Origin: a virus
Lineage: Duplodnaviria > Caudoviricetes
Length of the DNA: 64,000 bases
Direction: 5' to 3' (one strand)
IMG/VR virus record: IMGVR_UViG_3300021255_000152
Location: 74,029 to 138,028 of that record
Shown here: piece by piece, positions 1 through 53,957 of the stretch
How the letters are laid out: each line of letters opens with the position of its first letter
How positions within the stretch are numbered: the first letter of the stretch is position 1
The notes under the pieces: generated by a model
Database searches by the model: none
Seen by the model: only the letters and a program-made list of their open reading frames with translations
Told to the model about the DNA's origin: nothing
Position numbers and translations under genes: made by a program

Positions 1-864
1 TAATTGTTGCTGACGGGTGTTTCTTAAAATATTGCGAAATTCCGATTGTTCAATTTTTTGTTTAAGATTTTCTTTATCCGTAAATACATTTGCCATACAT
101 GTTTCATCGCTTCAAGGCTTTCCGCATGAATAAACGCCGCCATCTGGATGAATTCCATATCAATGTCCAACGCAATTTTTTCCTTCACAAAAGAACAATT
201 CTTTTCCTTCAATATAAGAAAGTATTTCATCAAAAGGTCTGTCTAAATCATCTGTTTCTGTAATGCATATATAATCAAATAATTCAACCATTCTTTTGGC
301 TAATTCAATATGGTCTTCAATCGTTAATCCAATTCCAAAAGCTGTATTAAAAATTAGATTAAACTCATTATCTCGCGCAAATTGATAAGATTCAATAATT
401 CTCTTACTATTCTCTGGAGTCATTGTAAAAATAGCATTTACAACAACTCCTTTTTCTTTTCCTCGTTGCATTAATTCAAAGAAATTTCTTGAACCTCTAG
501 ATATATTATTATCAATACCATCCCAAGAACTTCCTATGTTTATTTGCAATTTTTTAAAATAATCTAATCAAGCATCATTTATTAATGTTCCATTTGATTG
601 AAAAGCTCAATTAATAGGTTTATCGGAAAAATGTTGTGTTACATTTTTAAAATAATCAAGTCCTAAAATTGAAGGTTCCCCTCCATGTCAAATAATTTCT
701 CAAGACTCATTTGGATCAATAGCAATTATATTTTCAAGTGCTTCAATAGCTTGTTCTTGGGTCATTTCTAAAGGATGTTCTGCATCTCGATTATTTTTTT
801 CATAACAATAAGTGCATTTTAAATTACATCTATATGTTGGTTTAAATATTACTGTATTTGACAT
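1..864 (-). CDS. Radical SAM/SPASM enzyme #3 (anSME/peptide-maturase-like), 3' end outside window; requires TGA=Trp
   Basis: ATG at 864 after AAGGAGG. KPTYRCNLKCTYC (CxxxCxxC), II[TGA]HGGEP, FQSNGTLINDA[TGA], SWDG, C-x4-C...DGGVYSC SPASM start. 6 in-frame TGA, several at conserved Trp positions; open to window edge. Confidence 0.93.
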
Positions 865-2182
865 AATCTTTTTGTAGTTCCTCCTTTAAGTATGCTGGCA
901 TATATAATTGCTGAATTAAATATTGTTTTAAAGTAGGATTTAATTTAACAAATTCTTTTGGTGTTAAATTTCCTAATTTATCATAAATATATGGGACAAT
1001 AGCTTTTCAAAATTTACATTGTGCAGAATATGGCTTTAATCCTTTTGATTCTTTTAAAGAACAATTCAAACAGCCTTGACCGCAAACAGGAAGATAATCA
1101 CAGTTTAAACATTGATTTTGTATTTGAGTTTGTTTTAGTTGTTGTAATTTTAAGCTTTTATCTCCATTAAAGAAATCTTTAATTGAATTAAGCTCATCTA
1201 TATTGCAAACATGCATTTCTTCAATACTTGTGTCATCACATCTATATAATTCACCATCTGCGTTAATACAAATACGATTTGAATATAAGCAATTATCTAA
1301 ATTGCATATCTCAGCAGAACGATTTAATGCTCGACGTATATAAGCGAGAGCAGATCGTTCTGGAACTCTTGGATTATTATCATATATAAAAAATTCTAAA
1401 TATTTTTTATACTCTTGGATAAATTCATCTATATCTAAGAATTTTTCTAATGGATTATTAGTAGTACCAAATACTGCATTAAAACTAAAAGGAACTCCAT
1501 TATCAGAAGCCTTTTTAGAATCTGCAATTAAATTTTTAACATTTTGTTTAGTAATTACAGATATTATAAAATAAAAATTAGATAATTTTTCTTGAGATAA
1601 TTCATATCCTCTACATTGCTGCCCACTTCAGTCATAACTGGTTCCAATAGGAACATTATATTTATCTAAAAGATATTTTCATTCATCATCTAAAAGAGTT
1701 CCATTACTTTGTGCATTAAAAATTAATTTTATATCTTCTTTAATAGCATATTTATACATTTCTAAACAAACATCATCAAATCATTGTTTATCTACTGTTA
1801 AGAACTCTCCTCCATGTCAAGTTCATTCGATTTTTGAATAACCTTCTTCATTTAATAATCTAAGTAATCTTAAAATGCGCTCTTTTGATAAAACCATTCT
1901 TGGTTTTTGCTGATTTTTTTTATCAAAACAATAAATACAGTTTTGATTACAAAAATTTGTCACTTTACAAATAACTTCACAATTATTATAACAATGATGA
2001 TCGTTTCAATCTCCTTGGAATGTTTTTTCTGAATCCTTTTTTCCCAAAAGAACTTGTAGATATTCGTTTTTTAATAAAGAGTAATAATTTTGAATTCCTT
2101 CTTCTGTAGTTTCATCAATAACTTGATTAAAGTCAATGTTTGGAAGATAATTATCAAAATCTATATAATCACTATATTTCAT
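842..2182 (-). CDS. Radical SAM/SPASM enzyme #2, 446 aa, with ~65-aa N-terminal extension; requires TGA=Trp
   Basis: GGAGGT RBS. KVTNFCNQNCIYC, IE[W]T[W]HGGE, QSNGTLLDDE[W], SPASM Cys set CNLDNC..DGELYRC..CLNCDYLPVCGQGC..C. 7 in-frame TGA; ends TAA. Confidence 0.93.
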
Positions 2183-2570
2183 TGAAACCTCCTATATAAT
2201 GAATAAAATCATTATCTTGTTTATTTTCTTGTGGAGATTTTAAAATATAAATAGTTAATTTATTTTCAATACAATATTGAATTATCACATTGATATATTG
2301 TAAGGGATAATCTTTAGAAAGGTCAAAGATAACACCACCATTTATAATATCTATATTATTAATTAAATTTTCAACAGAAGTTTTTGTTATTTTTGTAAAA
2401 AGATAATATAAATCAATTCTAGAATCTCAATTATTAGCAATAAATCTTTTTTTAAAAAATTCTGGAATTATTTTATCTTCAAAAGATAAAGCTATCTTGC
2501 ATTCTTCTGTTTTGTCGAAAACATGACGAATATTTTTATAAATATCTTTATCATATTGAAAAATTTTCAT
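2172..2570 (-). CDS. 132-aa hypothetical partner protein in the rSAM operon (1 TGA=Trp)
   Basis: Starts 2 nt after the upstream stop and overlaps the next start. Open with one TGA: MKIFQYDKDIY...GGFNEI*. Confidence 0.75.
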
Positions 2571-2572
2571 AA

Positions 2573-3754
2573 TTAATCTCCTGTTCCTAAATATGTAAGT
2601 AAATCTTGAATATCAATAATTTTTTGATTTTCAATAAATTCATCTACTCCTCCACCAGTAGAATAATTTGGGTTATTTCCTGTTCTTAAATTATAAGCTG
2701 TTGATGTTCCTTGGCGCATTTGAAGAATATCTTCCCATGTAATAATGGTAAAATTAGAAACTACTGGACTATTTGTAAAAGTAACAGTAGTTTGACCCAT
2801 TGCAGTGAGAACTTTATTTACTTCTCCTTGTACCTGATCTTCATTTGGTTTAGTATAATAGTCAGTATTTCAAGTAGGAGCTGTATAGTGATAAATTCTA
2901 ATTGGAGAAGAGACTGCGGCATAAGTGGTTTCGTATGCGGTTGTATCTTGTCTAACATTACTATAACCAGTACCATTATTTGATGCAGTAACTGCATTGG
3001 TAGCATGATTTTCAATATGATGATAAGTTCAGCCATTTCCTGAAGGAATAGCACTCCAACTACCATTATCATAAACAGTAACACCAATTTTATACCAACC
3101 AGCGGTTAATGAAGTAGCTGTTCAAGTATAAGAGGTTGAAGTCTGTTCTGATAATAAGGTCCAATTTCCATAAGTACCGTTTTGGGTAGCACAATATTGA
3201 TAATATATACGAAATTTTGTGGCTGTGCTAGTATTATCATCAGAATATATTAATGATGTTAATATAATTTTTATAGATTTGCTGTTATAATATCTAGAAT
3301 TTGCAAATGTTGAACCAGATACTTGAGGTGCTTTATTGGTAGTGTTTGTTGGAGTTCTTCCAGTTTCTACTGTTGTATTAACTGCTGCAGTGTTGGTGTG
3401 ATTATTATATCCAGTATTTCTATGGTTACTATATCCACTATTTGTATGGTTATTATATCCGCTTTTAGTATATCCACCATTGTTTGTGTGGTCATCATAA
3501 CCTCTGTCGTTATGATTTGCGTATCATCCATCATTCATAGTTCATCCAGAACTTCTTCTATCGGTATGATCGTCACTACCGCTATTTCTATGGTTGCTAT
3601 AATTTCTATGGTTATTATATCCAGTATTTCTATGGTTATTAGCACCAGACTGAGAATAATTATTATAACCTGATTGACGATATGCAGAATTTGTATGTCT
3701 ATAATTTATTCTATATCCATTGGTATGAACCGCTTTTTGATGAGATTTAATCAT
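2573..3754 (-). CDS. 393-aa His/Tyr/Asn repeat protein fused to an Ig-like (Y_Y_Y/PKD-like) domain; putative rSAM substrate; 5 TGA=Trp
   Basis: AAGGAG RBS, ATG at 3754 overlapping the rSAM1 3' end. Joins track ORFs 3542..3808 and 2573..2800 in one frame. Repeats GYNNHRNT/GYSNHRNT/GYDDHTNN, Thr-rich linker, then NKAPQV...STSYT[W]TATSLTAGWYKIGVTVYD. Confidence 0.88.
3380..3727 (-). repeat. Imperfect ~24-nt coding tandem repeats (G-Y-N/S/D-N/D-H-T/R-N/D-S/T)
   Basis: Recurrent plus-strand unit tttctatggttattatatccagta and variants; 11 H-x-N/D motifs in the translation. Confidence 0.85.
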
Positions 3755-4706
3755 TTTCTTTCTCCTTTCTATATCCAAGACAGGCGCAATAAAGTCCCGT
3801 TCGAGCATGTCTTGGACAAGATAAGCATTCTTTTTGAGGCGGAGTTTTTCTTAGAGAATCTTCTTCCGCATGAAGTAAATCTAATATTTCATCAAAAGTT
3901 TCAAACTCTGATAAAGCATGTTTGAACTTGTTGCATCCAAAACAACCAATAATATCTAATTCTGGCGTAACATCTAAGGCAGAACCATCACAAGCAAAAC
4001 TTCCAAAAAATGATGGGTCTATCTTCATAGCAAATGCAACGAAATCATCGTCATATGCGCAAATAGGCGGATTATTACAATCGCAAGAAAATGTTACATT
4101 ATATTTGGTTGCCCAAGTCAGCATTTCTTTTAATATAGGTTGAAATTCATGAAAATACTGTTTAAAATTAAAATCTTTAGATAATTTCATATTTGGTACA
4201 GTAATTGACCATCTAATATCAGAAATATTATATTTTGCAATAATGTCTTCCCAAAAGCTCATATCTTGATGCGGATCAAAAATATTAATACTAATACGAC
4301 TTACAGCATTTGGAATGCATAAAGAAAGATAGTCTAAATTACGTTCTATCGTAGGAAGAAATTGCGGATTATTGTTAATATTTGGTAAAAATTCAATAAA
4401 AATTTCATCACTATATTCCACAATTTTTTGAGCAAATTCAAAAGAAAATGAAAAATTAGAAAAAACTAACACGGAAGAAAAACAATCATAAGAAATTATA
4501 ATATCTAATAAATCAAAAAATTGCGGATGTAATGATGGCTCTCCTCCGATAAGTCTAACATTTTTTTCATTATTTTGCTTTAAAAAATCTAAATATATTT
4601 TAAAGTTATCTAAATTTATATTTTTTACTGTATTTGTTTTCATTTCTGTTTGCGCGAAGCAATAAGGACAATGAAAATTGCAATAAGTATTTATCATTAA
4701 GTTCAT
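3747..4706 (-). CDS. Radical SAM enzyme #1 with Cys-rich C-terminus (SPASM/twitch-like), TGA-free
   Basis: NTYCNFHCPYCF, IGGEPSLHP, C-terminal C..GCFGC..CLSC..CAC. Confidence 0.92.
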   Translation of the reverse strand: MNLMINTYCNFHCPYCFAQTEMKTNTVKNINLDNFKIYLDFLKQNNEKNVRLIGGEPSLHPQFFDLLDIIISYDCFSSVLVFSNFSFSFEFAQKIVEYSDEIFIEFLPNINNNPQFLPTIERNLDYLSLCIPNAVSRISINIFDPHQDMSFWEDIIAKYNISDIRWSITVPNMKLSKDFNFKQYFHEFQPILKEMLTWATKYNVTFSCDCNNPPICAYDDDFVAFAMKIDPSFFGSFACDGSALDVTPELDIIGCFGCNKFKHALSEFETFDEILDLLHAEEDSLRKTPPQKECLSCPRHARTGLYCACLGYRKEKEND

Positions 4707-4724
4707 AGTCTATACCTCAATATA

Positions 4725-4753
4725 ATTCTATCAAAAAAAAACGCTTCTGTCAA
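4725..4753 (-). promoter_or_regulatory. sigmaA-type promoter for the rSAM operon
   Basis: TTGACA-N17-TAGAAT upstream of the RBS of 4706. Confidence 0.75.
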
Positions 4754-4798
4754 GACCTATTATGTTTAAAAAAAGGTCTAAAATAATTAATATTAAAC

Positions 4799-4838
4799 GG
4801 CCAATTTATGTTAAAAGCCTTTTTGACTCTTTAAAATA
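4799..4838 (+). promoter_or_regulatory. Candidate phage-specific (late) promoter GGCCAA-N25-TTTAAAATA upstream of the endolysin
   Basis: The same two boxes with the same 25-nt spacing recur at 50158-50197 (minus). Confidence 0.4.
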
Positions 4839-4862
4839 CAAGAGAGAGAAAGGAGAAGAAAT

Positions 4863-7340
4863 ATGTTAAATTTATGCTTACCTATGAAGGTGATTAACAT
4901 TACTCAACATTCTGGTAGTAATTTTAGTCATCCAAATGGCGCACTCGATTTAGCAGGTTCTGATGCTGGAGTAGATTTTGCTTTTGCTCTTGGTAATTAC
5001 TGAAGATGTATTGCAGGACCTTGAGGAAGTAATACGTATTTCTTCACCGCATCTGACGCAAAAGGTAATCCAGTTACAGTTCATTGCGCGGATGGAGTGA
5101 ATAGAATTGTTACCGTAGCTATGACTCATAGTAATTTAAGGTATAATAAACCTATTATTGGTAAAGTTTATTCTGATGGTGAAGCGATATATGAAGAAGG
5201 TACTGCAGGTCAAGCAACAGGTAATCATATTCATTTTGAAGTGGCAGAAGGCTTGCATTATAGTAAAACAAAAGACTATAATTTAAATGTATATCGTATG
5301 CCAAATGAATTAAAACCAGAAGATGTTTGCTTTATCTGTGATAGTTTCTCTAAAGTTAAGAGCATGGGTGGAGTAACGATGAAACATTGTGATACACCTT
5401 ATTATGAAACGCAAGATACTAAACCAGTATTAGGAACACTACGCGGTATTGATATTAGTAACTGGCAGGCAAGTATGGATGTGGCTGCGGTCAGTGCTGA
5501 TTTCGTAATCCTAAAAGCTAGTGAAGGCGTAGATTGGAAAGACCCTGCGTTCGATACATTACTTGAAAAGGTTAAGAAAACCGATAAGTTAATCGGTTTT
5601 TATCATTTTGCACGTCCAACCGCAAACAACACTCCAGAAGCTGAAGCTGAAAGTTTCTTGAAGTTTATTACTCCTTCTGGATTAATTGGCAAGGCTATTC
5701 TAGCTTTGGACTGGGAAGCTGAAAATAAACAAAATGTTGCTTATGCTAAAGCATGGCTTGACTATGTTTATAATAAAACAGGTGTTAAGCCTTGGATTTA
5801 TATGAGTGAGTCTGTTACCAAGAATTATGATTGGAGTTCTGTTGCAAACGCTGGTTATCCTCTTTGGGTAGCTAAGTATAGAGATAAGTCTCAAGATTAT
5901 AATTATGATATGACTAATGCGGGAACAGCACCACAGGTTAATTATTGGAATAATTATATTATGTGGCAATGGACTGGTGTTGGTAGATTAGACAGTTATA
6001 ATGGAGATATTGATTGCAATTTATTCTACGGAACTGCTGATACTTGAAGAAGTTTAGCTGCTCCAGTAGAAGATGAATTAGCACAATATACTGACCTTGA
6101 GCTTGCGCACATGGTTCTTGAAAATAAGTTCGGCACAGGCGAAGAACGTAAAAAAGCTTTAGGCGATAGATACAAAGCGGTTCAATTAATTGTAAATCAA
6201 TTAGTTAAAGAACAGCAAGAACAAAAGCCTTCTATTGATGTTGGACCTGTTGTCAAATATTCAATTCAATATAATGGATTAACTGTTCATATTGCAAAGA
6301 TCAAAAAAGATCAAGAGATTAGAGGTTCTGTTGATGGAAATAGATATGGGGTTAAATATGATAAAACTGTTCCAGCAGGATTCTCTGATAAGGATTTACT
6401 TAATGCCGGTTATCAAGAAGCTTGCGCGCAAAATGGTTCAACATTCTATTCATGGAATGGCGCCACTTATGCAGAAGGCATTGAGATTTCTAAGGGTATA
6501 AATAATCAAGATTTTTATATGGATGCAGTTTCTAAATTTAATAGTGTTATGGCTATTGGATTTCCATATACTGGTGGAATTGTATTTGCGCCACAAAAAG
6601 AAATTGTTGAAACTTATTCTAGATATTATGGAGCAGTAACGGGCATTTTTGGAATTATTTATGAAGGAAAACAAAATGCTATGGGAAGTTCTATTAACCG
6701 CAATGGAGGATTTACTGTAAAAAGTGGGCGTTCTATCCTTGCGGAAGATGAAGATTACTATTATTCTATTTGTTTTGTTGGAGATACTGGTTCTACTGGT
6801 CTTACTGGAAAAGAGCTTTATAATTTATGTATAACCGTGTCTAAAAATATGATTAATGCTATTTGCTTTGATGGTGGTGGAAGTGTATTCCAAAGAATTG
6901 AAGGTGAATATACAATCAATACTACTCGTCAAGTTAAAAATGGTATTATGTTATTTATTAAAGATGATGAATCTACTTCACAAGAACCAAAAGATGAAAC
7001 ACCAGTAAATCCTTTAGATAAATATTCTGACGAAGAGTTGGCAGATATGGTTCTTGACGGAAAATTTGGTTCTGGGGATGCACGAAAAGAAGCTCTTGGA
7101 AATAGATATATAGCAGTTCAAACTATCGTTAATATAAGAGTTATTAACGCTTATTTAAGAGCAGGAGATAAAATCCGTATTAAAAATAATGCTAAAGATT
7201 TAAATACAGGAACTACTTATATCAAATCAGTCTATTTAACAGTATATAAAGTAAAAGAAATTTCTGAAAATAGAGTAGTATTTGGTACAGATAATGCAAT
7301 TATTGGCGTTGTTTCTAAAGATAATATTATATTAGAATAA
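4863..7340 (+). CDS. 825-aa modular endolysin: M23-like peptidase + GH25 muramidase + Cpl-7 repeat + NAGPA/phosphodiester-glycosidase-like domain + Cpl-7 repeat + SH3-like tail; 3 TGA=Trp
   Basis: AGGAG RBS, ATG 4863. TGA at 5001, 5022 and 6045 join track ORFs 5097..6047 and 6111..7340. Motifs SHPNGALD and GNHIHFEV (M23), GIDISNWQ/KASEG/LDWE/DIDCN (GH25), LAxMVLxxKFGxGxxRKxALG twice (Cpl-7), AICFDGGGS...RQVKNGI (NAGPA). Confidence 0.9.
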
Positions 7341-7353
7341 GGAGGAAAAGGAT

Positions 7354-7782
7354 ATGATTAATAATTTCACAGCATTAGCAGTTGTTGCTATGTTTATTGA
7401 AGCATTTATCACTTATGGTAATACTATTGCTAAAGAACATCGTATTCAATGGCAAATTGTCTTTGCTTTTGTTGTTGCGTTAATTCTTTGCTACAATAGT
7501 GATTTGAACTTATTCCAATTCATGGGATTATCTGAAAAATATCCTATTATTGGAATCGTATGTACTGCACTTGTTATGTGTAGAGGCTCTAACTACTTCT
7601 TTGAGTTCTATAAGCAATTAAGTAGCTGGCGTGCAAACAATCCAACAAAACCAGAAGATGTTAAGGATGATTTCTTATTCGCATCTAAGGAAAAAGTTGA
7701 AGAAGCTGTAGCACAAGAAAACGAGCTTCAGGAACCAAAAGACGAGATTGAACAAGAAGACGTAAAAGTTGCTAATCGTTAA
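7354..7782 (+). CDS. Putative holin
   Basis: Directly after the lysin; 2-3 hydrophobic segments, RGSNY motif, charged C-tail. Confidence 0.75.
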   Translation: MINNFTALAVVAMFIEAFITYGNTIAKEHRIQWQIVFAFVVALILCYNSDLNLFQFMGLSEKYPIIGIVCTALVMCRGSNYFFEFYKQLSSWRANNPTKPEDVKDDFLFASKEKVEEAVAQENELQEPKDEIEQEDVKVANR

Positions 7783-7789
7783 AATTTTC

Positions 7790-7819
7790 TTGACTTTTGG
7801 AGAAAAAATTTAGTATAAT
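7790..7819 (+). promoter_or_regulatory. sigmaA-type promoter upstream of ORF-hsp20-tRNA(UCA)-GT8
   Basis: TTGACT-N18-TATAAT. Confidence 0.65.
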
Positions 7820-7840
7820 AACAATGTAAGGAGAACTGAT

Positions 7841-8026
7841 ATGGTATTATACGTTGATACACATGATGAATTAAAAAAGGTAGAGAATTTTCTATTTAGA
7901 TTTATTTATCCAGAAGAGTTCTCTTTACATATTGTTATTAGAGATGAAGAGGAAGTTGGTGAATATTACAGATATAGAACTGTATATAACGAATTTGCTC
8001 ACGGTCTCGTTTTAGAAACTTTTTAG
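7841..8026 (+). CDS. Hypothetical protein, 61 aa
   Basis: AAGGAG RBS, open frame. Confidence 0.6.
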   Translation: MVLYVDTHDELKKVENFLFRFIYPEEFSLHIVIRDEEEVGEYYRYRTVYNEFAHGLVLETF

Positions 8027-8053
8027 ATTTTATTTTTTGGAGGTATTTTTATT

Positions 8054-8425
8054 ATGATTTTTGATTATGATTCTTTTTTTAACTGGGATAAGCCAGCATA
8101 TACTTTTAGTCGCTCTGTCCATGATATGTCACCGTATAAAATTAAAACTTTAGAAGATAGAGTTGTATTGGTTCATAATATCGTGGGTGTTAAAGAGAAA
8201 GATATTAAAGTTGATATTGTAAATGAAGACGGAAGAGATCAGCTTGTCATTGAAGGTGTAACTCACAATGACGTATTGAACTATGATTATAAAGTTAAAT
8301 CTAAATTTGATATTAAAGCTGATATGTTTAAAAACGTCACATATAGTGTAGAGGATGGACTTCTTTACATTAATTTGTATAAAAAAGAACCAGAAGTAGC
8401 AAAATTAACTGTTACTAAAGCTTAG
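8054..8425 (+). CDS. Small heat-shock protein (Hsp20/alpha-crystallin family)
   Basis: GVKEKDIKVDI...LVIEG...VEDGLLYINL pattern; GGAGG RBS. Confidence 0.75.
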   Translation: MIFDYDSFFNWDKPAYTFSRSVHDMSPYKIKTLEDRVVLVHNIVGVKEKDIKVDIVNEDGRDQLVIEGVTHNDVLNYDYKVKSKFDIKADMFKNVTYSVEDGLLYINLYKKEPEVAKLTVTKA

Positions 8426-8426
8426 T

Positions 8427-8450
8427 AGGTAGAGATTTCTCTACCTTCTT
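8427..8450 (+). terminator. Hairpin (weak terminator or processing signal) just upstream of tRNA(UCA)
   Basis: AGGTAGAG-ATTT-CTCTACCT followed by TCTT. Confidence 0.45.
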
Positions 8451-8452
8451 AT

Positions 8453-8523
8453 AGGGGTATCGTTCAACGGTAGGACAGTGGTCTTCAACACCATATATGT
8501 GGGTTCGAATCCTACTACCCCTG
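8453..8523 (+). tRNA. Opal-suppressor tRNA-Trp(UCA)
   Basis: Cloverleaf AGGGGTA/TACCCCT, discriminator G, anticodon arm GTGGT-CTTCAAC-ACCAT, T-loop TTCGAAT, short variable loop. Body closely resembles Firmicute tRNA-Trp. Confidence 0.93.
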
Positions 8524-8541
8524 CTATTATTGAGGTGTTTT

Positions 8542-9225
8542 ATGAAATATGCTTATGTTACATTGTTAAGTTCTGATGATTATATTTGAGGAGTCCTTGG
8601 ATTAAAATATAGTTTAGAAAAAAATAATTGTAAATATCCGCTAGTCACAATAGTAACAAATGATATTTCTCAAAAAAATTTAAATTTATTAAAACAAGAA
8701 AATATTATTATTAAATTAGTAGAAAAACAAGTTTTTCAGAATATCTCAAATGACCATAGATATAAAACTTGTATAAATAAGCTATATATTTTTGGTTTAA
8801 GTGAATATGAAAAAATATTTTTTCTTGATGCTGATTGTATTGTTATTTATAATTTAGATTTTTTATTCAATTATGATCTTCCAATATTTTCTATAATTCC
8901 AGATATAGAAACTTCTTATAGTCGTGGATATATTTGAGGAGGTGCTTTTTTAGTAAAACCTTCTTTAAAATTAAAAGAATACTTTTTTCAAATAGCACCA
9001 AATTTTGATACTGATGAAAAAATTCTTAATGATTTTTTCCAAAATTTTAATTTTAAAATTTTTAATGCAAGCTTTTTTATCATACACGACTATAATCCGA
9101 TTAAAAAGTATTGGGAGAGATATTCTTTAAAAGATAAAGAAAAAATAAAAAATTTTATTGATAATTCAACATACTTAATTATGGAAAAAACAAATTGAAT
9201 ATATTCAGAAATTTTACCACATTAA
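8542..9225 (+). CDS. Glycosyltransferase family 8 (glycogenin-like), 227 aa, 3 TGA=Trp
   Basis: GAGGTG RBS. MKYAYVTLLSSDDYI[W]GVLGLKYSL...NKLYIF..YEKIFFLDADC (DxD). Absent from the code-11 track. Confidence 0.85.
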
Positions 9226-9271
9226 AAAAAATAAAGGGAGTAACCAATTAAGGTTACTCCCTTTTTATTTT
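9226..9271. terminator. Bidirectional intrinsic terminator between convergent genes
   Basis: A-tract, GGGAGTAACC-loop-GGTTACTCCC, T-tract. Confidence 0.85.
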
Positions 9272-9835
9272 TTAATTATTATCTTCATCATATTGAAGAG
9301 CATCATATCCTATATCTCTATGACGATGACCTTCTAAATCTTCTGCTGTTACATAAAGTTCATCATCACCATGATTTATCTCTAATCGATCATGTTCTTT
9401 AACGATTGGCAATCTGGTTGCTTTTTGATAATATAAGTCACCTTGGCTATTGCCACCTAATGAATTATAAATTTTATGTAGTTCTGCGAGTCTATCAAAT
9501 TGATATTGAGTTATTTCACCTTGAGCGATATACTTTTTACAAGTATTAATTAATTGATATTTATAAAAAGCAAGATTCTGTTCGCGCAAAGTAAGAAAAT
9601 CTCTTTCAACATGTTCGAGATGTTCAACTGCTTCATTATACTTCTTTTGGAAATAATTCATATGGTCCATCATTGTGGCCTTAATAAATTCGGCCATTTC
9701 TGCCTTGTCAAAGGAGGCTGCTTTTTGTTGCGTCTCCTGGCCCTTCTTTGCCAATTGGTCCAAGATTGATTTTATAAGGAATCCTCCAACGGCAACAAGA
9801 ATATAGGTTAATAAGGCATCTGCTGATATTGTCAT
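9272..9835 (-). CDS. Membrane-anchored phage protein (lysis-region type, YxxLGGN motif)
   Basis: N-terminal TM, coiled coil, IYNSLGGNSQG; GGAGG RBS. Confidence 0.65.
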   Translation of the reverse strand: MTISADALLTYILVAVGGFLIKSILDQLAKKGQETQQKAASFDKAEMAEFIKATMMDHMNYFQKKYNEAVEHLEHVERDFLTLREQNLAFYKYQLINTCKKYIAQGEITQYQFDRLAELHKIYNSLGGNSQGDLYYQKATRLPIVKEHDRLEINHGDDELYVTAEDLEGHRHRDIGYDALQYDEDNN

Positions 9836-9904
9836 AATTGCGTCCTCCCTTTCCCTCTTTCAAAGTTTGTCGAATATACTAAAGAAGGTTATAATTAGTC
9901 TTAC

Positions 9905-10408
9905 TTAATTCGACCAATCATAACCCTCTTCCTTAATTAATTTATCTTCTGTTTGCGCGCAAGTACCAATGCATATAGCATCACATTCATCTTGAGTTGC
10001 TTTTATGTTATATGTCTCTTGGACCCATAGCTGCGCGTTCTTTTTTTGTTCTGGACGACGTTTTCCTTTTATCTGTAATTTTGATTTTCAAGTTACAGAA
10101 GGGATAATGATTACTTTCTTATTTAACTCTACAGCAGTCTCATAAACTACACCATAAACATTTGCCAATGTTTTGAAAGTATGAACGTTGTTTCCAACGG
10201 TTGATTGCATTTGTATATCTTCAAAAGCCACAGTATCTATATTTCATTCTGTAAATTTTTGAATCATAAATGCGCGAATTGCTACTAATCTATCTCCAAT
10301 ATCGTCCTGTTCGGTAGTTAGATGTCCTCAATCTTTAAGCTCCCCATCAATGAAGATTGATCATCCAGACACTCTACTTGCCTGATCTAGTGCTAAAATT
10401 CTGGTCAT
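9905..10408 (-). CDS. RuvC-like Holliday junction resolvase, 167 aa, 4 TGA=Trp
   Basis: MTRILALDQASRVSG[W]S...VAFEDIQ...PSVT[W]KS...DECDAICIG. Invisible in the code-11 track. Confidence 0.88.
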
Positions 10409-42376: not shown

Positions 42377-43003
42377 TTACAAAATTTTCTTTTTGTCAAA
42401 TTTATGCTTCAACATTTTTCTAAAATATTCTTGGGTATATCCAAATTTTTCAAACCAGTATTTAAAATCATCTAAATTTTTTAATTCAGAATAATAATGG
42501 ACTTGATTCTCGTTTCAATTATATTCTTTGCATAGTTGCTCGCATAGTAGCAATGTTTGGGTCATGCAATCACGCAAATAATTGAGATTTTCTTTATTAT
42601 CTTCACATATGCAGATATGTATATATCTATCTGTATTTCAAGACTGCATGTTGGTTGGCATTGTTTTTATTATTGCAACCTGGTTATATTTATCTTTCCC
42701 AATTCAATAATGAAAATTATGATCTCGATGAGTGTGGTTATAATCGTTCATTTTATTATTATATCCAATCTTTTCTAGTATCTCTTGTTTATTTTCATTT
42801 TTACTACCAGGTTTTACATACCATCTTAAATATGGGCGTGGCATAAGAGACGAATGAATCACGATTCCTTTTGGATTAAGCATATTATAATGTTTAGCAT
42901 ATGCCGTACTATTGTACATTACACAATCAAGAACTCAAGAAATATTAATGTTCTTGTTTGTTGTTTTTTGCTCTAAGAATTTGATAAACTTTTTCTTTTC
43001 CAT
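42377..43003 (-). CDS. Amidase_2-like (N-acetylmuramoyl-L-alanine amidase fold) protein, probably catalytically degenerate; 3-4 TGA=Trp; start 43003 or 42919
   Basis: KGIVIHS..PYLRWYV..HY[W]IG..S[W]..ICICED..LCKEYN[W]..WFEKFG; open to TAA at 42377. Confidence 0.72.
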
Positions 43004-43385
43004 CAATATAATTCTTTAAATCCACTTTCATTTCTGCAATGCAGTCCTTGATTGTTTCAATGTCCTCTCTGGTCATTCTAATCTGACGATATAGCATTTT
43101 TACAGGATATGACTTAGGATCAAATTGCTTACTCTGTTTCATAGAGTATAAAAGTTGGTTTAGACCTTCTAATTTGATCCTTAGATCATTTTTATATGTG
43201 GCCATCATATTGATATGCATACGAATTTCCGCAATAGTGGAACCAGTAATTAAGCTCTTAAAATCTTCATCTACTGGATTGCAGTATGCTTCTCCCACAT
43301 ATTTTCGTCCATATTTATTATCCACAAATTCGCATTTAGTATAATTATCTTTATATGTAAATTTAGGTTCTTTTTTCGTTTTCAT
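42945..43385 (-). CDS. Hypothetical protein
   Basis: AGGAG RBS; GEAYCNPVD motif, coiled coil. Confidence 0.7.
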   Translation of the reverse strand: MKTKKEPKFTYKDNYTKCEFVDNKYGRKYVGEAYCNPVDEDFKSLITGSTIAEIRMHINMMATYKNDLRIKLEGLNQLLYSMKQSKQFDPKSYPVKMLYRQIRMTREDIETIKDCIAEMKVDLKNYIDGKEKVYQILRAKNNKQEH

Positions 43386-44132: not shown

Positions 44133-44619
44133 TTACCACCTCATCATTGCGGATAAATTCAATCTCAATAATGGAACAATCAATGTCGCCAAATTCATCT
44201 TTAGTAGGGTATGTAAATTTTTCAGACATATTACGGATTGCATCTTCTGGAACTCGAGCTAATCCATTTCGATTGAGGTTATTTTTTAAGCACTCTTCAA
44301 GTGGAGTATTGATAACATAAACTTCAAGTCGATCGAAAAGAGTTTTATCAACTCTATTATAGAACTTGCGACGAGAACCAACAGTAATATGAGTTGCATC
44401 TGCCCAAACAATGTCGTGGGATTCAGCACTCTTATTTACATCATGGCAAAATTTATTGAAAACATCTGTTTCTTTTGAGAAATAAGGAATACCAGGAGCT
44501 ATTAAAGAGAATCGAATAGCATCACGGGATACTACTGCGTCTTCTGGATGTGCCATCATTTTTACAAAAGTAGATTTACCGCTTGCTGGAATTCCAACCA
44601 TCATTCTAAGAGTTGTCAT
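44125..44619 (-). CDS. Polynucleotide kinase-like (AAA_33)
   Basis: GIPASGKST, SRDAIR, DATH..R, R..VPE. Confidence 0.82.
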   Translation of the reverse strand: MTTLRMMVGIPASGKSTFVKMMAHPEDAVVSRDAIRFSLIAPGIPYFSKETDVFNKFCHDVNKSAESHDIVWADATHITVGSRRKFYNRVDKTLFDRLEVYVINTPLEECLKNNLNRNGLARVPEDAIRNMSEKFTYPTKDEFGDIDCSIIEIEFIRNDEVVNE

Positions 44620-44821
44620 TTTCAAAATCACCCCTTTCAAATTTCATTTTGAATTTTGCTACATCTTGTTCTGAATAACATTCGTAATGATTTACTTCTT
44701 GTTTGCAGTGTATGCAATATAGCTTTTTTAAATGTCCTTTTCCTCTTTGCGCCGCTTCGTTGCGCGCAATGGGAATCCCCCTGTTCCCGCACTTTATGCA
44801 ATAAAATTCATGTGTAATCAC
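44606..44821 (-). CDS. Zn-ribbon protein resembling the ribosomal protein L33 fold
   Basis: CIKC...LKKLYCIHC...HYE spacing like bL33. Confidence 0.5.
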   Translation of the reverse strand: MITHEFYCIKCGNRGIPIARNEAAQRGKGHLKKLYCIHCKQEVNHYECYSEQDVAKFKMKFERGDFENDNS

Positions 44822-44962
44822 CTCATAACCTTCTTTCTAATCCATATTCATGTATTATTTCATCTTGTAAATCAAGATTCATTATAAGGAATAATTTACT
44901 TTTTGGAATAATATGAATACTTCCTACATTGTCTGCATAATAATAGTCATCTTGACTTTCTT

Positions 44963-45163
44963 TTAAGAAAATGTACCCACGATCCCGTCTAAAATTTTTG
45001 TAGCTCTGATCGCTAATTCTTCCATCTGACTTTTTGTAATTTTCTTCCATTTCCAACACCAATCGATTCGATGACAAATCCAATCAATATCCCTTTCGTG
45101 ATAAGGCTTAAAATTTTCATAACTTTTAAGGGCAGTATCAATTTCTTTATAGAAGTCTTTCAT
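44963..45163 (-). CDS. Hypothetical protein
   Basis: RBS and upstream promoter; WICHRIDWCWKW. Confidence 0.6.
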   Translation of the reverse strand: MKDFYKEIDTALKSYENFKPYHERDIDWICHRIDWCWKWKKITKSQMEELAIRATKILDGIVGTFS

Positions 45164-50672: not shown

Positions 50673-50761
50673 ATTTATATTATAACAAAAAAAATAAAGG
50701 AGAGCAACACATGCTCTCCTTTATACAGGCTCCCAAGAGAGGAGCAATGGATATCAACGCG

Positions 50762-50842
50762 TCCAGTCAGCGGGACTTGAACCCGCACGTCTCTCGACAA
50801 CACCCCCTCAAGATGCCGTGTCTGCCATTCCACCATGACCGG
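50762..50842 (-). tRNA. tRNA-Leu(GAG)
   Basis: Cloverleaf, loop TTGAGGG, long variable arm. Confidence 0.88.
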
Positions 50843-50846
50843 AGAG

Positions 50847-50919
50847 TGCTGGTGACAGGAGTCGAACCTGCAACCTACTGATTACAAGTCAGTTGCGCTG
50901 CCAATTGCGCCACACCAGC
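50847..50919 (-). tRNA. tRNA-Thr(UGU)
   Basis: ACTGA-CTTGTAA-TCAGT. Confidence 0.93.
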
Positions 50920-51055
50920 AGAATCTAACCTTTGAAAATATTCACAACCTTTAAGCCATTCAAGTTCATGCGGATTACATCTTTGAGAACCGCATTTTTC
51001 ACAATATTTTTCTTGAAACTCTTCAAAAGTCATAGTTATACCTCCAAGGTTATAG

Positions 51056-51142
51056 TGGGTAGGGAGGGACTCGAACCCCCAAGTTTACCGCGTGGGACCT
51101 GATTTACAGTCAGGCGACTTCACCAATTTGTCACACCTACCC
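51056..51142 (-). tRNA. tRNA-Tyr(GUA)
   Basis: CCTGA-CTGTAAA-TCAGG, long variable arm. Confidence 0.88.
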
Positions 51143-51143
51143 A

Positions 51144-51356
51144 TTACTTTGTGTTGTTGTTTGAAAATATTCCACGGAATACCATACAAACAACTGTGAA
51201 TAAAATTACAAGGGGCCAACTAAATGCTACTGTCCATCCTGCTATTGAAGTGATACCAACTGTCTTAAGACCCCAACAAATAATCCATACAAGACCTGCG
51301 TTTATTAACAATGCAATAATAAGTCCAACTAACGCTCCAATAATAACTGCTACCAT
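51144..51356 (-). CDS. Small two-TM membrane protein
   Basis: AGGAGGT RBS; hydrophobic. Confidence 0.7.
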   Translation of the reverse strand: MVAVIIGALVGLIIALLINAGLVWIICWGLKTVGITSIAGWTVAFSWPLVILFTVVCMVFRGIFSNNNTK

Positions 51357-51375
51357 TTTAACCTCCTTGTAATAG

Positions 51376-51449
51376 TGACACTACGGGGATTCGAACCCGC
51401 GATTATCCGATTGAGAGCCGGATTTCCTGAACCATTAGAAGATAGTGCC
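51376..51449 (-). tRNA. tRNA-Glu(CUC)
   Basis: TCCGG-CTCTCAA-TCGGA. Confidence 0.9.
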
Positions 51450-51454
51450 ATAGG

Positions 51455-51604
51455 ATAACCCACTGGGATTCGCACCCAGATATTCTGCCTTTCACAGCAG
51501 ACCCACTGCGTACCAAGAGTCGTTTGCAACCGAGTTCTTGATAGGTATGTCCTCCTAACTGCTTGCAAGTCCAGTTAGCCATACAGACCTTATGGTATGG
51601 GTTA
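51455..51604 (-). ncRNA. tRNA-like RNA with a large structured insertion replacing the D arm
   Basis: Acceptor TAACCCA/TGGGTTA, T arm CTGGG-TGCGAAT-CCCAG, TCTGC/GCAGA stem, extra hairpins. Confidence 0.65.
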
Positions 51605-51606
51605 AG

Positions 51607-51681
51607 TCATGCCGACGGGACTCGAACCCGCGAATCCTGCCTTGAAAGGGCAGTGTGTTAAACCAGTTTCACCACGACATG
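51607..51681 (-). tRNA. tRNA-Glu(UUC)
   Basis: CTGCC-CTTTCAA-GGCAG. Confidence 0.9.
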
Positions 51682-51687
51682 AAATAG

Positions 51688-51801
51688 TGGAGGAGGAAGG
51701 GATTTGAACCCCCAAAGTCTAGAATTCTATTAACTAGTATTTTAGCGCGCTACCGACACCAGTGTTACGCACTGGCTCCGTTACCATTTGGATACTCCTC
51801 C
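51688..51801 (-). tRNA. Atypical tRNA (Tyr-like, GUA) with ~45-nt variable region and non-canonical anticodon loop
   Basis: GGAGGAG/CTCCTCC-A, D arm, CCAGT-GCGTAAC-ACTGG (no U33), T loop TTCAAAT. Confidence 0.6.
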
Positions 51802-51808
51802 ATATAAG

Positions 51809-51881
51809 CGGTCCCGACGGGTGATGCTCCCGCTATCTCTACCTTGACAGGGTAGCGACTCTGCTGACTGTCCCCGAGACC
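51809..51881 (-). tRNA. tRNA-Asp(GUC) with atypical D and T loops
   Basis: CTACC-CTGTCAA-GGTAG; T loop AGCATCA; G73. Confidence 0.78.
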
Positions 51882-51953
51882 ATATTTTAAGCTAGGATCC
51901 AACCATCCATTATGTCACCCTACCGAACGCTAACATGTGACTACCTAGCTTAG

Positions 51954-52028
51954 TGGGAATGAGAGGACTTGAACCTCCGACCTCTCGCTTATCAGGCGAA
52001 CGCTCTAGACCAGCTGAGCTACACTCCC
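51954..52028 (-). tRNA. tRNA-Ile(GAU)
   Basis: Loop CTGATAA, canonical cloverleaf. Confidence 0.93.
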
Positions 52029-52038
52029 AGAAAATGGA

Positions 52039-52212
52039 TTATCGAGGTACAACCTCGTAATCCATCGCATCTACGCGAAGATCTTCCAAACAGGTATAAT
52101 CTTCATTAACGTAGTCTGCCATATCTTGGTCAGCAAAGGGGGTTTCTCCCAGCATTGACTGCATAAGCCCCGCTGACATAATCAAGTCCCTTGAATTAAA
52201 ACGTTCTCTCAT
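52039..52212 (-). CDS. Hypothetical acidic protein, 57 aa (below track cutoff)
   Basis: AGGGG RBS; MRERFNSRDLIM...EVVPR*. Confidence 0.5.
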   Translation of the reverse strand: MRERFNSRDLIMSAGLMQSMLGETPFADQDMADYVNEDYTCLEDLRVDAMDYEVVPR

Positions 52213-52282
52213 ATTTCATTCCCCTTTCCTTACCTTACATATATATTATAACATTTATTTTTTATTTTTTCAAATAATTAGT

Positions 52283-52501
52283 ATAACCAGGTGTGCAGTT
52301 GGACGCCTCGAACAGGGCTGTTAAGAATCTATGGCTCGATATTTGGTTCCTCAATCACACGCATTTCTTGCGGATTCAACGAATAGTAACTGGGGTAGCT
52401 TACGCGGATTTTCACCGCCGCCCTCTGTGGTGTCTCCCCACTGCTTTCCGCAGGACGAACTTTATTTTCTTCACGGCTTTTAATGCTTGCCTACTGGTTA
52501 T
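52283..52501 (-). ncRNA. Candidate structured ncRNA (~220 nt)
   Basis: Terminal pairing ATAACCAG/CTGGTTAT, internal GC-rich hairpins, no credible ORF. Confidence 0.5.
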
Positions 52502-52681
52502 GAAAAGATCTAAGGCAGAGTGACGACTCTCCTAAATTCAACTGCGTCTCCTACTTATGTAGTAATTGAATTACCTTAGACCTTGCAAGGCACAACCCTT
52601 GCGCGCAGGTGACTTTACCTGGAGTTCCCCGACTTTTTTAAGTCCAGTATAACAACATACACTATCGGGTGGTGGAACTAA

Positions 52682-53188
52682 TTATTTTTCAAGTCTAATA
52701 ACCTGATCTGGTTCAACTTCTGTAGAGAAATATACGCCATCAAGGCCGATAAGATCTCTAGCGACATCCTGATAAAGTACGGATGTAATGCCCTGTTCTG
52801 TACCAAGGTCATCGCTGAAATACTGAGCAACGTCCTTCTTAAATACTACGTGAGTAATAGGCTGACTGTAGAGTCCCTGGAATTCAGAGCAGTGAGAGAA
52901 AATTGGATTGCCCTTAAAAGCAGTGGAATAAAGAGTTGCTTTACCTGCTCCTGTAAGATTATTACCAGGCACAACAGTAATTTTAAGGGAAACTGCCCCA
53001 AAAATTTGTTCGCAAGGAAGAAGCTGAGAAATTGCTTCTGCCTTTTCAAGATCTTCTACATAGAGCTTAACCTCAAGATTGTCCTCGTCAAAGACGATGT
53101 TAATTCCTGGATCCTTGCCAAAAAGAACACGAAGTTCTCTGACATAGATATACCAAGGAGCGGATAACTTTAACTTATTCTGGTCCAT
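52682..53188 (-). CDS. Hypothetical phage protein
   Basis: AGGAG RBS; LSAPW..LFGKDP..VVFKKDVAQYFSDDL. Confidence 0.75.
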   Translation of the reverse strand: MDQNKLKLSAPWYIYVRELRVLFGKDPGINIVFDEDNLEVKLYVEDLEKAEAISQLLPCEQIFGAVSLKITVVPGNNLTGAGKATLYSTAFKGNPIFSHCSEFQGLYSQPITHVVFKKDVAQYFSDDLGTEQGITSVLYQDVARDLIGLDGVYFSTEVEPDQVIRLEK

Positions 53189-53211
53189 TTTTAATATCTC
53201 CTTTTTAAAAG

Positions 53212-53285
53212 TCTCCTCTGAGGGATTCGAACCCCCGGCACCTACGTTCGTAGCGTAGTGCTCTATTCCACTGAGCTAAGAGGAG
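53212..53285 (-). tRNA. tRNA-Arg(ACG)
   Basis: CTACG-CTACGAA-CGTAG. Confidence 0.92.
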
Positions 53286-53515
53286 ATAAGTACGCCGAAC
53301 ATCCTATTGAATCACTTTCATCTTGCGGGATTTCTATTGTTTCTTTGCCGGCAGAGTTTGAACCATTAACCGTGGCGTAGGGTAATTTAATAACGACCAG
53401 TAGATAAACTTCCCATAAAGCTACTGAATGATAGTTCTACTTCCTTTCGACAGCGCTATCAACCGAGAAGATCTTCCCAGGCATATCCGCGGTTTATGTT
53501 TCTCCTGAGAATGAG

Positions 53516-53588
53516 TCGCCCCAGTAGGACTTGAACCTACGACCCTCTGCTTGTAAGGCAGATGCTCTCCCAACTGAGCTATGGGACG
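53516..53588 (-). tRNA. tRNA-Val(UAC)
   Basis: TCTGC-CTTACAA-GCAGA. Confidence 0.93.
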
Positions 53589-53590
53589 AT

Positions 53591-53857
53591 TTAATCGTTT
53601 TCTAAATGTAAATCAGACTTTTTCATTATAGTACCATCTGCATTATAGGCTACTGTTATTCCACCTCTATATGTGGCAATAAACATAAGATAAACAACTT
53701 CTGTATCTTCATCAATAGCGTAATAAAAATGTTCATTATCTGATGAATATACAGTCATATTAGTTGGACCTTTTCCGTTATAAGCAGTATGTGGATTACT
53801 ACATCCTGTCAATAATAAAGCAGATAACACTATTTTTATTAAATCTGAAAATTTCAT
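53591..53857 (-). CDS. Small lipoprotein
   Basis: Lipobox LLLTGC; D..T.V.Y..GGIT..NADG. Confidence 0.72.
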   Translation of the reverse strand: MKFSDLIKIVLSALLLTGCSNPHTAYNGKGPTNMTVYSSDNEHFYYAIDEDTEVVYLMFIATYRGGITVAYNADGTIMKKSDLHLEND

Positions 53858-53877
53858 TTAGCATCTCTCCTTTTAAA

Positions 53878-53952
53878 TAGCAGAAGTGAGATTCGAACTC
53901 ACAACCAATAGGGTATGAATCTATTGCTCTAACCGATTGGAGCTATTCTGCT
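53878..53952 (-). tRNA. tRNA with CAU anticodon (probably elongator Met)
   Basis: Loop TTCATAC; AGCAGAA/TTCTGCT. Confidence 0.85.
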
Positions 53953-53957
53953 AAAAG

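Follow-up and report, generated by a model that had tools for sequence, protein, structure and literature searches.

The window analysed here is a 64-kb stretch of phage DNA, the right-hand 64 kb of the 138-kb IMG/VR record IMGVR_UViG_3300021255_000152, and its source is a large gut phage that reads TGA as tryptophan. At the left end of the window lies a compact group of genes for three radical S-adenosylmethionine (SAM) enzymes, which we call rSAM1, rSAM2 and rSAM3, together with a protein that couples a tandem aromatic-x-Asn/Asp array to an FN3 domain. Comparison with relatives identifies this group as a conserved, previously undescribed operon, and we favour, on balance, the reading that it is a dedicated protein-maturation cassette with a cross-linked array that is possibly displayed on the virion. 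Coordinates are window positions, the cassette genes lie on the minus strand, and the feature coordinates of the repeat protein include the stop codon. The features are as follows.

3747-4706, minus strand: rSAM1, 319 amino acids (aa), no in-frame TGA; matches PF04055 and PHROG 13987
2573-3754, minus strand: repeat protein, the candidate substrate, 393 aa, five in-frame TGA
3350-3754, minus strand: N-terminal region of the repeat protein, residues 1-135; V-H-T-N, then the G-Y-x-N/D-H-x-N/D array, predicted disordered
2885-3340, minus strand: FN3 domain of the repeat protein, residues 139-290 (AlphaFold2 and VIA-align)
2576-2884, minus strand: C-terminal part of the repeat protein, residues 291-393; HY-x-x-P-x-W, then three helices ending I-x-D-I-Q-x-L-L
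2172-2570, minus strand: 132-aa accessory protein, one TGA; matches no known family
842-2182, minus strand: rSAM2, a radical SAM/SPASM protein of 446 aa, seven TGA and no TGG
1-864, minus strand: rSAM3, a radical SAM/SPASM protein, first 288 of 372 aa, the remainder lying left of the window
8453-8524, plus strand: tRNA with anticodon TCA (reads UGA), labelled SeC by ARAGORN
4725-4753, minus strand: promoter-like site TTGACA-17-TAGAAT with an extended -10 TG, just upstream of rSAM1

Under the standard code (table 11), positions 1-4753 contain fragments plus a single intact gene at 3747-4706. When the genes are called again with table 4, positions 1-4706 resolve into five abutting or overlapping minus-strand genes, each terminated by TAA or TAG, and the five packed genes that the initial annotation had proposed with TGA read as Trp (rSAM1, the repeat protein, the 132-aa protein, rSAM2 and rSAM3) are thereby borne out. 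Standard-code gene calling hides the whole operon, which is a practical warning for other searches. Beyond the left window edge rSAM3 is completed and is followed by genes for a U32-like protein of 321 aa and for proteins of 169 and 82 aa; after the 82-aa gene comes a convergent gene for a YcaO protein of 607 aa (PF02624, E 1e-35; record positions 70042-71865) that has no TGA. The TGA:TGG counts are 0:3 for rSAM1, 5:4 for the repeat protein, 1:0 for the 132-aa protein, 7:0 for rSAM2, 7:1 for rSAM3, 5:1 for the U32-like protein, 3:0 for the 169-aa protein and 0:3 for YcaO.

We read TGA as tryptophan because a tRNA with the TCA anticodon is encoded, because the W of the W-HGGEP motif is TGA here and an ordinary Trp codon in standard-code relatives, and because the orthologue of the repeat protein in the relative L006 has TGG Trp codons at positions where the window has TGA. 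The tRNA in question, placed between the lysis genes and a GT8 glycosyltransferase gene, is likely a UGA-to-Trp suppressor that unlocks the recoded late genes; a tRNA-Trp (CCA) is also encoded at 53957-54029. Only rSAM1, the 82-aa protein and YcaO could be translated without the TCA tRNA, with every other cassette gene needing it. The longest open reading frame of the repeat protein runs from 2573 to 3808, and the homologues all begin with MIK(S/T)HQ, which corresponds to its M19. The ATG at position 3754 is preceded by an AAAGGAG ribosome-binding site and gives an 8-nt overlap with the rSAM1 stop; homologues, ribosome-binding site and overlap together fix the start, and the length of 393 aa given at the outset is correct. 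The first TGA, at codon 71, was also considered as a switch between a free 70-aa peptide and the full protein and was rejected, as the feature is not conserved; the orthologues in L006, L007, L008, L013 and L015 contain no in-frame TGA.

The repeat protein, the neighbouring enzymes and their linkage

The strongest evidence that these genes belong together comes from ten genomic contexts (L004, L005, L006, L007, L008/L009, L010, L013, L014, L015 and the window), which were reached through rSAM3, the repeat protein or rSAM1. In all ten the repeat protein directly follows rSAM1, often with the 8-nt overlap, and the order is rSAM1, repeat protein, small protein(s) and then two or three SPASM-type radical SAM genes; U32 comes next wherever the contig is long enough, except in L008/L009. 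This linkage persists as the identity of the repeat protein drops from 74% to 27%, and the phages that carry the cassette are mixed, some reading TGA as Trp and others having no in-frame TGA in the cassette genes. In the relatives examined, the enzyme set and the repeat protein are an obligate, translationally coupled unit. The pairing of radical SAM genes with repeat proteins on which the initial annotation had built its case is thus found in other phages, and none of the ten contexts holds the radical SAM trio without a repeat protein. YcaO is confined to the closer lineage of the window (the window, L004, L005, L006 and L013), and its candidacy as a universal core component was rejected, since it was not seen in the available sequence of L010, L014, L097 or the Dehalobacter locus described below. 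In L006 the rSAM3 gene (L006 4333-5425) falls into two frames, of 110 aa and 242 aa, which could be due to a frameshift, a misassembly or decay; that cassette is otherwise intact and free of TGA.

An exhaustive HMMER search returned 31 representatives of the repeat protein (about 20 full length, 25-70% identical; about 25 diverged members). The family plan consists of an N-terminal motif, an aliphatic-free tract, a central Trp-rich motif, the FN3 domain, an HY-x-x-P-x-W segment and three helices. The N-terminal motif, (I/L)(K/R)Q(K/H)(A/S)V-H-T-N, is present family-wide, its His being invariant and its Asn nearly so, and the tract that lacks aliphatic residues is rich in N, S, T, G, Y, H, D, W or C. 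In the window protein, the array within residues 1-135 surrounds the central Trp-rich motif SGWTMNDGWYANHND and contains 11 H-x-N/D motifs, the number first reported, where composition-preserving shuffles give 3.0 and none of 500 reaches 11. The broader motif [YWFH]-x-[ND] occurs 19 times in these residues against 6.8 expected (289 against 112 family-wide), and across 24 family proteins shuffling predicts 41 H-x-[ND] and 14 [YC]-x-x-[HWY]-x-[ND] where 160 and 112 are found.

The consensus unit is S-G-[Y/C]-[N/S/D]-N-H-[T/S]-N. Tyr and Cys interchange at its first position, and the second aromatic position is H in 109 cases, Y in 39, W in 19 and F in one across the family; the same position in the distant relative L097 is H in 19, W in eight and F in one. 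Such interchange is more readily explained by an aromatic cross-link donor than by a metal ligand or a charge. Repeat number is variable even among close relatives (348-398 aa), a leader-like acidic N-terminal extension of 30-40 residues is present in P0051, P0054-56, P0059 and P0065, and one member carries an inserted ILEI domain (PF15711), a GG-type lectin fold. A target of the anSME type, S-x-P-x-R, was rejected, since the SSPIR of the repeat protein is kept among close relatives only and not family-wide.

The Ig-like domain noted initially proved to have an FN3 fold. AlphaFold2, run with a 23-sequence alignment (A2), gave a predicted local distance difference test (pLDDT) score of about 90 over residues 139-290 and over the helices, and VIA-align placed the domain on titin FN3 with Z 9.5 and a root-mean-square deviation of 2.4-2.8 Å over about 95 residues. 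Foldseek searches of the PDB and BFVD returned FN3-type rows only (probability 0.9-1.0, E above 1e-3), and these fill the structural match list, with no known match for the C-terminal helical fold and no PDB sequence relative for the family profile. Residues 25-124 have pLDDT below 50 and form a loop between strands 13-23 and 125-135. When AlphaFold2 was given the repeat protein as a single sequence, the model could not be used (pLDDT 39).

The three radical SAM assignments made from the sequence alone were confirmed, with PF04055 matched by all three enzymes, each of which has CxxxCxxC, and SPASM in rSAM2 and rSAM3. rSAM1 (PF04055 E 1e-8; C9/C13/C16) has eight conserved C-terminal Cys, seven of them invariant and one present in 16 of 17 relatives, with no canonical SPASM domain; its matches are to generic N-terminal radical SAM sequence (viperin, MoaA and QueE), and beyond this core it matches no known family and forms its own. 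rSAM2 has a 70-residue N-terminal extension, a TIGR04085 SPASM match (E 5.8e-10; 39.5 bits against a cut-off of 27) and the Cys set C78/C82/C85 plus C293, C298, C315, C358, C361, C367, C371 and C389, with C13/C17/C20 plus C231, G242, C247, C291, C294, C300, C304 and C321 as the corresponding positions of rSAM3. Both follow the seven-Cys SPASM pattern C-x9-15-G-x4-C ... C-x2-C-x5-C-x3-C ... C, and these Cys are invariant in seven or eight orthologues, except C358 of rSAM2 (6/7). The top NCBIfam models for the pair are anSME, DynA, AmcB, TIGR04083, PapB, GrrM/OscB and YhhB, all far below cut-off: for rSAM2 the best are anSME, DynA and TIGR04083, and for rSAM3 anSME (3.4e-28), DynA (5.3e-28) and AmcB (9.4e-26), each under its cut-off. 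The nearest PDB entries are anSME 4k36 for rSAM2 and anSME 4k37 (E 3e-15) for rSAM3, followed by ChlB and CteB, and DynA is the best model, over the full length, for the SPASM enzymes of L097 and Dehalobacter (152 and 128 bits). The SPASM enzymes group with protein- and peptide-modifying families, not with nucleotide enzymes.

The U32-like protein is a borderline match to PF01136 (23.1 bits against a gathering threshold of 22.4; 46.1 bits for its Dehalobacter homologue), has seven Cys that are invariant across six orthologues, and matches no NCBIfam subfamily. The 132-aa protein is conserved in closer relatives at 28-47% identity and has no Pfam, NCBIfam or PHROG match. The cassette thus defines three uncurated enzyme families, namely rSAM1, the SPASM pair and the U32-like partner.

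Distant rSAM1 relatives (25-33% identity) also adjoin aromatic-x-Asn repeat proteins with an Ig-type domain, in other architectures. L096/L097, which use the standard code, have the order Baseplate_J, Mu Gp48, a fibre-like 202-aa protein, a 511-aa protein, rSAM1, a 74-aa protein and two SPASM radical SAM genes, with an Amidase_3/SLH lysin further downstream. An Ig domain opens the 511-aa protein and about 30 units of [H/W/F]-x-N-[T/S]-G-Y-x-x-Y-x-[D/N] come after it, and since the gene for this protein follows Baseplate_J, Mu Gp48 and the fibre-like gene and precedes the lysin, the protein occupies a tail-fibre slot. L099/L100, which read TAG as Q, encode an rSAM1-like protein, a 120-aa protein, a 221-aa protein ending in Tyr repeats of the QYNGQYSS type, radical SAM enzymes and a 272-aa protein, without a Pfam match, that is similar to the U32-like protein of the window at its N-terminus. 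The helical region of L099 was rejected as an equivalent of the family C-terminal domain (hhalign probability 2.8%, not significant).

The system is also present outside phages, in Dehalobacter chromosomes and Oscillospiraceae contigs. Two Dehalobacter chromosomes (CP148031.1 and NZ_CP157399.1; L018 4951-9966 and L021) carry a non-phage core, covered by no NCBIfam model, in the order prepilin peptidase, pilus-type genes, SPASM radical SAM, U32, a 259-aa protein, lipoprotein, rSAM1-like and HD-GYP; the 259-aa protein begins with a signal-like segment, contains W/Y-x-N repeats and ends in an Ig-like region. In the Oscillospiraceae contigs, which are metagenome-assembled, an rSAM1-like gene is accompanied by GT8 and by a 447-aa protein with an Ig domain and Tyr-rich Y/W-T-N-P repeats. 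A Marinifilaceae rSAM1 relative (L017) lies beside a LanC-like protein and two YcaO proteins, which makes it less likely that the YcaO neighbour in the window lineage is accidental. A YSNYSNYSN repeat with an Ig-like segment was also seen about 8.8 kb from an rSAM1-like gene in L102 (a 232-kb IMG/VR contig, near position 193, plus strand), and may be a further variant or a chance match.

Proposed maturation of the repeat array

We propose that a core of rSAM1 and one to three DynA/anSME-like SPASM enzymes, usually with the U32-like Fe-S protein and a small accessory protein, would have as its target the disordered array at the N-terminus of the neighbouring 393-aa protein. Judged from sequence, the repeat protein is likely to be the substrate of these enzymes. 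Hydrogen abstraction from side chains would then lead to many short intramolecular links on the tandem aromatic-x-Asn/Asp motifs, first Y/C-x-N/D and then H/W/Y-x-N/D; the hexapeptide Y/C-x-(N/D/T)-H/W/Y-x-(N/D) amounts to two adjacent aromatic-X-X motifs. The most likely products would be three-residue cyclophane-type C-C links, with thioethers where Cys replaces Tyr, and a floppy loop would in this way be turned into a rigid, protease-resistant module on the FN3 and helical domains. We hold cyclophane or thioether chemistry on the array only tentatively. It is attractive, if speculative, to assign the two SPASM paralogues to two ring types, and rSAM1, as the most faithfully linked enzyme, may perform the founding step, perhaps on the invariant H-T-N. 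The U32 relatives are oxygen-independent hydroxylases, so it is conceivable that the U32-like protein adds hydroxylation. The early view that the phage installs many cross-links in its own protein has gained from the obligate synteny, from the aromatic-X-X repeats and from the DynA/anSME/cyclophane-like models; the chemistry itself is what we infer.

The product would probably be made late and displayed outside the cell, most likely as a virion fibre or decoration protein, because the cassette lies in the TGA-recoded late block beside tail-fibre and lysis genes. Across the whole contig, structural and lysis genes fill record positions 1 to about 84,400, and most genes of this block have in-frame TGA; the minus-strand replication half (window 10654-64000) has almost none, unlike window 1-10408. 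Recoding has been proposed to mark late phage genes (bioRxiv 10.1101/2021.08.26.457843), and the concentration of TGA in the half that holds the structural, lysis and cassette genes fits this idea. Extracellular display of the repeat protein is suggested by several features taken together: L097 places it in a fibre slot, the Dehalobacter version has a signal-like peptide, one family member has the ILEI insert, the proteins contain Ig/FN3 domains and the cassette lies in the late block. Association with the virion seems to us plausible, at slightly short of even chances, with positional support from the L097 tail-fibre slot and from the fibre and lysis neighbours in the window, and with no PHROG, Pfam or PDB match beyond FN3. 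The virion-displayed Ig protein of the initial annotation is therefore strengthened by L097 and by the Dehalobacter N-terminus in respect of display, whilst the virion location itself is again something that we infer.

A number of findings weigh against this picture. Transcription of the cassette runs opposite to that of the structural genes and a promoter-like site of host type precedes it, so that late expression is no more than probable. The L008/L009 cassette lies beside DNA polymerase and helicase genes, not structural genes, and the repeat protein matches no structural-protein family in Pfam, PHROG or PDB, nor any in NCBIfam. Arrays grow by duplication, which inflates the motif statistics given above, and P0046, P0047 and P0049 retain only the invariant H-T-N and a Tyr/Trp/Gly/Ser-rich tract, so the strict H-x-N array is not universal. 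Every enzyme match is far below the family cut-offs, and for this reason the chemistry could instead be epimerisation, hydroxylation, formylglycine-type oxidation or a methylation-free rearrangement.

Known systems and alternative readings

The His-Xaa-Ser (HXS) antiphage system, in which HxsA is matured by the radical SAM enzymes HxsB and HxsC plus HxsD (Li et al., Nat Commun 2026, PMC13128918), is by analogy the closest functional counterpart of the cassette. Maturation is needed for its function, and a change of +8 Da maps to one repeat (PMC13128918). Common to the two systems are a folded protein with tandem His-x-polar repeats, a small accessory protein and two or more radical SAM enzymes that include a SPASM-type one. 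They differ in that the cassette has at least 11 units of Y/C-x-N/D-H/W-x-N/D where HxsA has five HxS units, FN3 and helical domains where HxsA has a peptidoglycan-binding domain, and three radical SAM enzymes plus U32 encoded by a phage of Gram-positive type in a different gene order, with no sign of export or N-terminal processing. Against the HxsB model (TIGR03978) rSAM2 and rSAM3 score 57.3 and 51.8 bits where the cut-off is 370, and the HxsC model (TIGR03977, cut-off 267.9 bits) is outside the 25 best families of rSAM1 (all E <=5.8e-4 and <=36.5 bits) and gives 36.6 bits with the L097 rSAM1 relative. Neither HxsD nor HxsA was recognised, the 132-aa and repeat proteins being without an NCBIfam or Pfam match. 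The parallel with this system drawn at the outset consequently stands as an analogy and not as membership of the HXS families.

The analogy does raise the alternative that deserves most weight, namely that the matured protein is a soluble or cell-envelope effector like HxsA that serves superinfection exclusion, anti-defence or host takeover, with the modified His-rich array binding DNA or another target. In HXS, too, a repeat protein with a folded domain is accompanied by a pair of radical SAM enzymes and one small protein, and the system keeps phage DNA from entering (PMC13128918); moreover, the cassette acts like a mobile module with varying neighbours (replication genes in L008), it has its own host-type promoter-like site, and the bacterial Dehalobacter version sits beside pilus-type genes. 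We nevertheless regard such an effector as unlikely. The phage repeat proteins read as having no signal peptide or membrane segment, four of the five window cassette genes have in-frame TGA and lie in the late block, as would be expected of late products more than of exclusion factors, the interchange of H, W and F is at odds with an array that binds DNA by charge, none of the HXS family models is matched, and the L097 copy is in a tail-fibre slot.

Triceptide synthases (XyeB, GrrM/OscB, YhhB, HaaB, HtkB and ChlB) offer a closer parallel to the proposed chemistry, as they target aromatic-X-X motifs including the His-first HAA, HNR and HTK (PMC11499958). Repeated aromatic-X-X motifs and SPASM enzymes of the anSME-like branch are common to both, and ChlB (PDB 9gm3) is among the few PDB matches of rSAM3. 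However, the candidate substrates of the cassette are proteins of 314-511 aa with a confidently folded FN3 domain, not short leader-core peptides with a cleavable core, their units hold two interleaved motifs, rSAM1 and the U32-like protein are additional, and the host is a phage. The models for three-residue cyclophane-forming enzymes (XyeB, GrrM/OscB, FxsB, YhhB and AmcB) have cut-offs of 310-445 bits, and the best scores obtained here are 90.7 for AmcB, 66 for GrrM and 65.5 for YhhB. DynA (NF041298) is a top-two model for both rSAM2 and rSAM3, with 98 bits for rSAM3, 74 for rSAM2, 152 for L097 and 128 for Dehalobacter against a cut-off of 450. Dynobactin has a Trp-to-Asn C-C link and a His-to-Tyr link, and the residue types that are linked (Trp, Asn, His and Tyr) are the same as in the cassette repeats. 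It is nonetheless a secreted Photorhabdus antibiotic of ten residues (PMC10125368), not a protein.

These parallels bear on a second alternative, that the system makes a true RiPP (a peptide made on ribosomes and modified after translation), with the array excised to release small cyclophane or thioether peptides, such as a bacteriocin freed by lysis, and the FN3 domain and helices serving as carrier or scaffold. In keeping with this, the repeats match triceptide-type motifs, GrrA/OscA-type systems have multi-core precursors (NCBIfam TIGR04261 description), several family members have the leader-like acidic extension, and a related rSAM1 occurs in the bacterial cluster with LanC and a double YcaO. 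No protease or exporter is present in any examined context, though, and conservation within the family is highest in the FN3 and helical domains, which would be unexpected in a disposable carrier. AlphaFold2 also places the array as a loop between two strands and not as a free tail, and the L097 array extends over 330 residues in a fibre slot, so we consider a RiPP improbable.

Whole proteins are acted upon in two further systems. In Methanococcus voltae, the SPASM enzyme CrpC installs ranthionine thioethers on the Cys-rich protein CrpA (PMC13692751), so that, as proposed for the cassette, a SPASM enzyme cross-links a whole protein encoded next to it, which is relevant to the repeat members in which Cys replaces Tyr (GCSTHSNSGCNTHSD); unlike the cassette, this system comes from an archaeon, relies on one enzyme, modifies only Cys and lacks an aromatic-x-Asn array, and the likeness drawn here is one of function. 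anSME (PDB 4k36-4k39) has a folded protein as its substrate; among solved structures it is the nearest to rSAM2 and rSAM3, and it is also their top NCBIfam match. Scores of 98.8 and 81.5 bits for the pair compare with a cut-off of 349 for TIGR03942, and there is no sulfatase gene among the annotated neighbours examined.

The last alternative, that the tract is an ordinary low-complexity, metal-binding or linker region and that the radical SAM, U32 and YcaO proteins are unrelated neighbours modifying a nucleotide, a cofactor or tRNA/rRNA, might draw on the generic N-terminal matches of rSAM1 to viperin, MoaA and QueE, on the RNA and quinone hydroxylases among U32 proteins and on the iron-binding His-rich fibre tips of T4 gp37, but it is rendered very doubtful by synteny in 10/10 contexts with translational coupling, by recurrence of the pairing in four further, unrelated architectures, by the placement of the SPASM enzymes with protein- and peptide-modifying families and by the substitution of W and F for H at the same repeat position.

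Maturation of a cross-linked array thus remains the reading that we prefer. Its most general form, in which phages and some Firmicutes would have a displayed Ig/FN3 protein (in phages, a fibre or decoration protein) made into a poly-cyclophane by rSAM1, DynA-like SPASM enzymes and the U32-like protein, is more tentative still than the chemistry alone. Radical SAM cross-linking is known mainly from small secreted peptides, and whole-protein substrates, HxsA and CrpA, were described only in 2026. We found no description of the cassette in the literature on phages with radical SAM/SPASM, RiPP, cyclophane or YcaO. If the reading is true, the cassette would extend such chemistry to proteins that phages encode and probably display on the virion, each chain having as many as about 30 motif units; this would be the first virion protein matured by radical SAM enzymes, a chain of tens of side-chain macrocycles, and a poly-cyclophane material on the scale of a protein that could serve receptor binding or resistance to gut proteases. 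The cassette is found repeatedly in gut and animal-associated phages, among which three genetic codes are in use. For enzymologists it would provide a natural substrate with many sites, and for phage biologists a possible new route to fibre hardening or specificity.

Genome setting and neighbouring genes

The terminase large subunit (TerL) is 44-47% identical to those of the Enterococcus phages H1 and EF1 and of phage Phass-1, and 48% identical to that of Geobacillus phage E3 (PMC10607447); these identities indicate a phage of about 140 kb with a Firmicutes host. Phass-1, whose TerL is 44% identical, was rejected as a carrier of the cassette, having one SPASM radical SAM gene and no recognisable match to the cassette or the repeat protein. 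In the GenBank phage collection, window 1-8000 had no match at the DNA level, the repeat protein had none by tblastn, and rSAM1 gave a single match of 67 residues. Pattern scans of IMG/VR (single proteins, alignment A1) found nothing, and the relatives described above came from protein collections.

The promoter-like site at 4725-4753 has the top score in positions 1-5200, with 11 of 12 matches; the region is not enriched and the site is a consensus match only. Past YcaO lie genes for a tail-spike, a Gp10_C protein and a fibre with an S74 chaperone, and to the right of the cassette are a GH25/CW_7 lysin, small genes, the suppressor tRNA and the GT8 glycosyltransferase. The lysin (4863-7340, plus strand) is an 825-aa protein with GH25, an NAGPA-like domain and CW_7 repeats and has three in-frame TGA; an M23-like N-terminus suggested for it earlier was not confirmed by Pfam.

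The GT8 gene (8497-9225, plus strand) has three in-frame TGA as well. A GT8 gene also stands between the rSAM1-like and Ig/Tyr-repeat genes of Oscillospiraceae (L022 1521-2333) and near the cassette in L013, and the window GT8 may act on the same repeat protein. Exceptions to the scarcity of TGA in the replication half are the genes at 42377-43006 (four TGA) and 44562-45083 (seven TGA). About 23 tRNA genes and a tmRNA (58717-59026, with a tag ending ...QLALAL) are clustered in the early half, at 50761-63958 on the minus strand.

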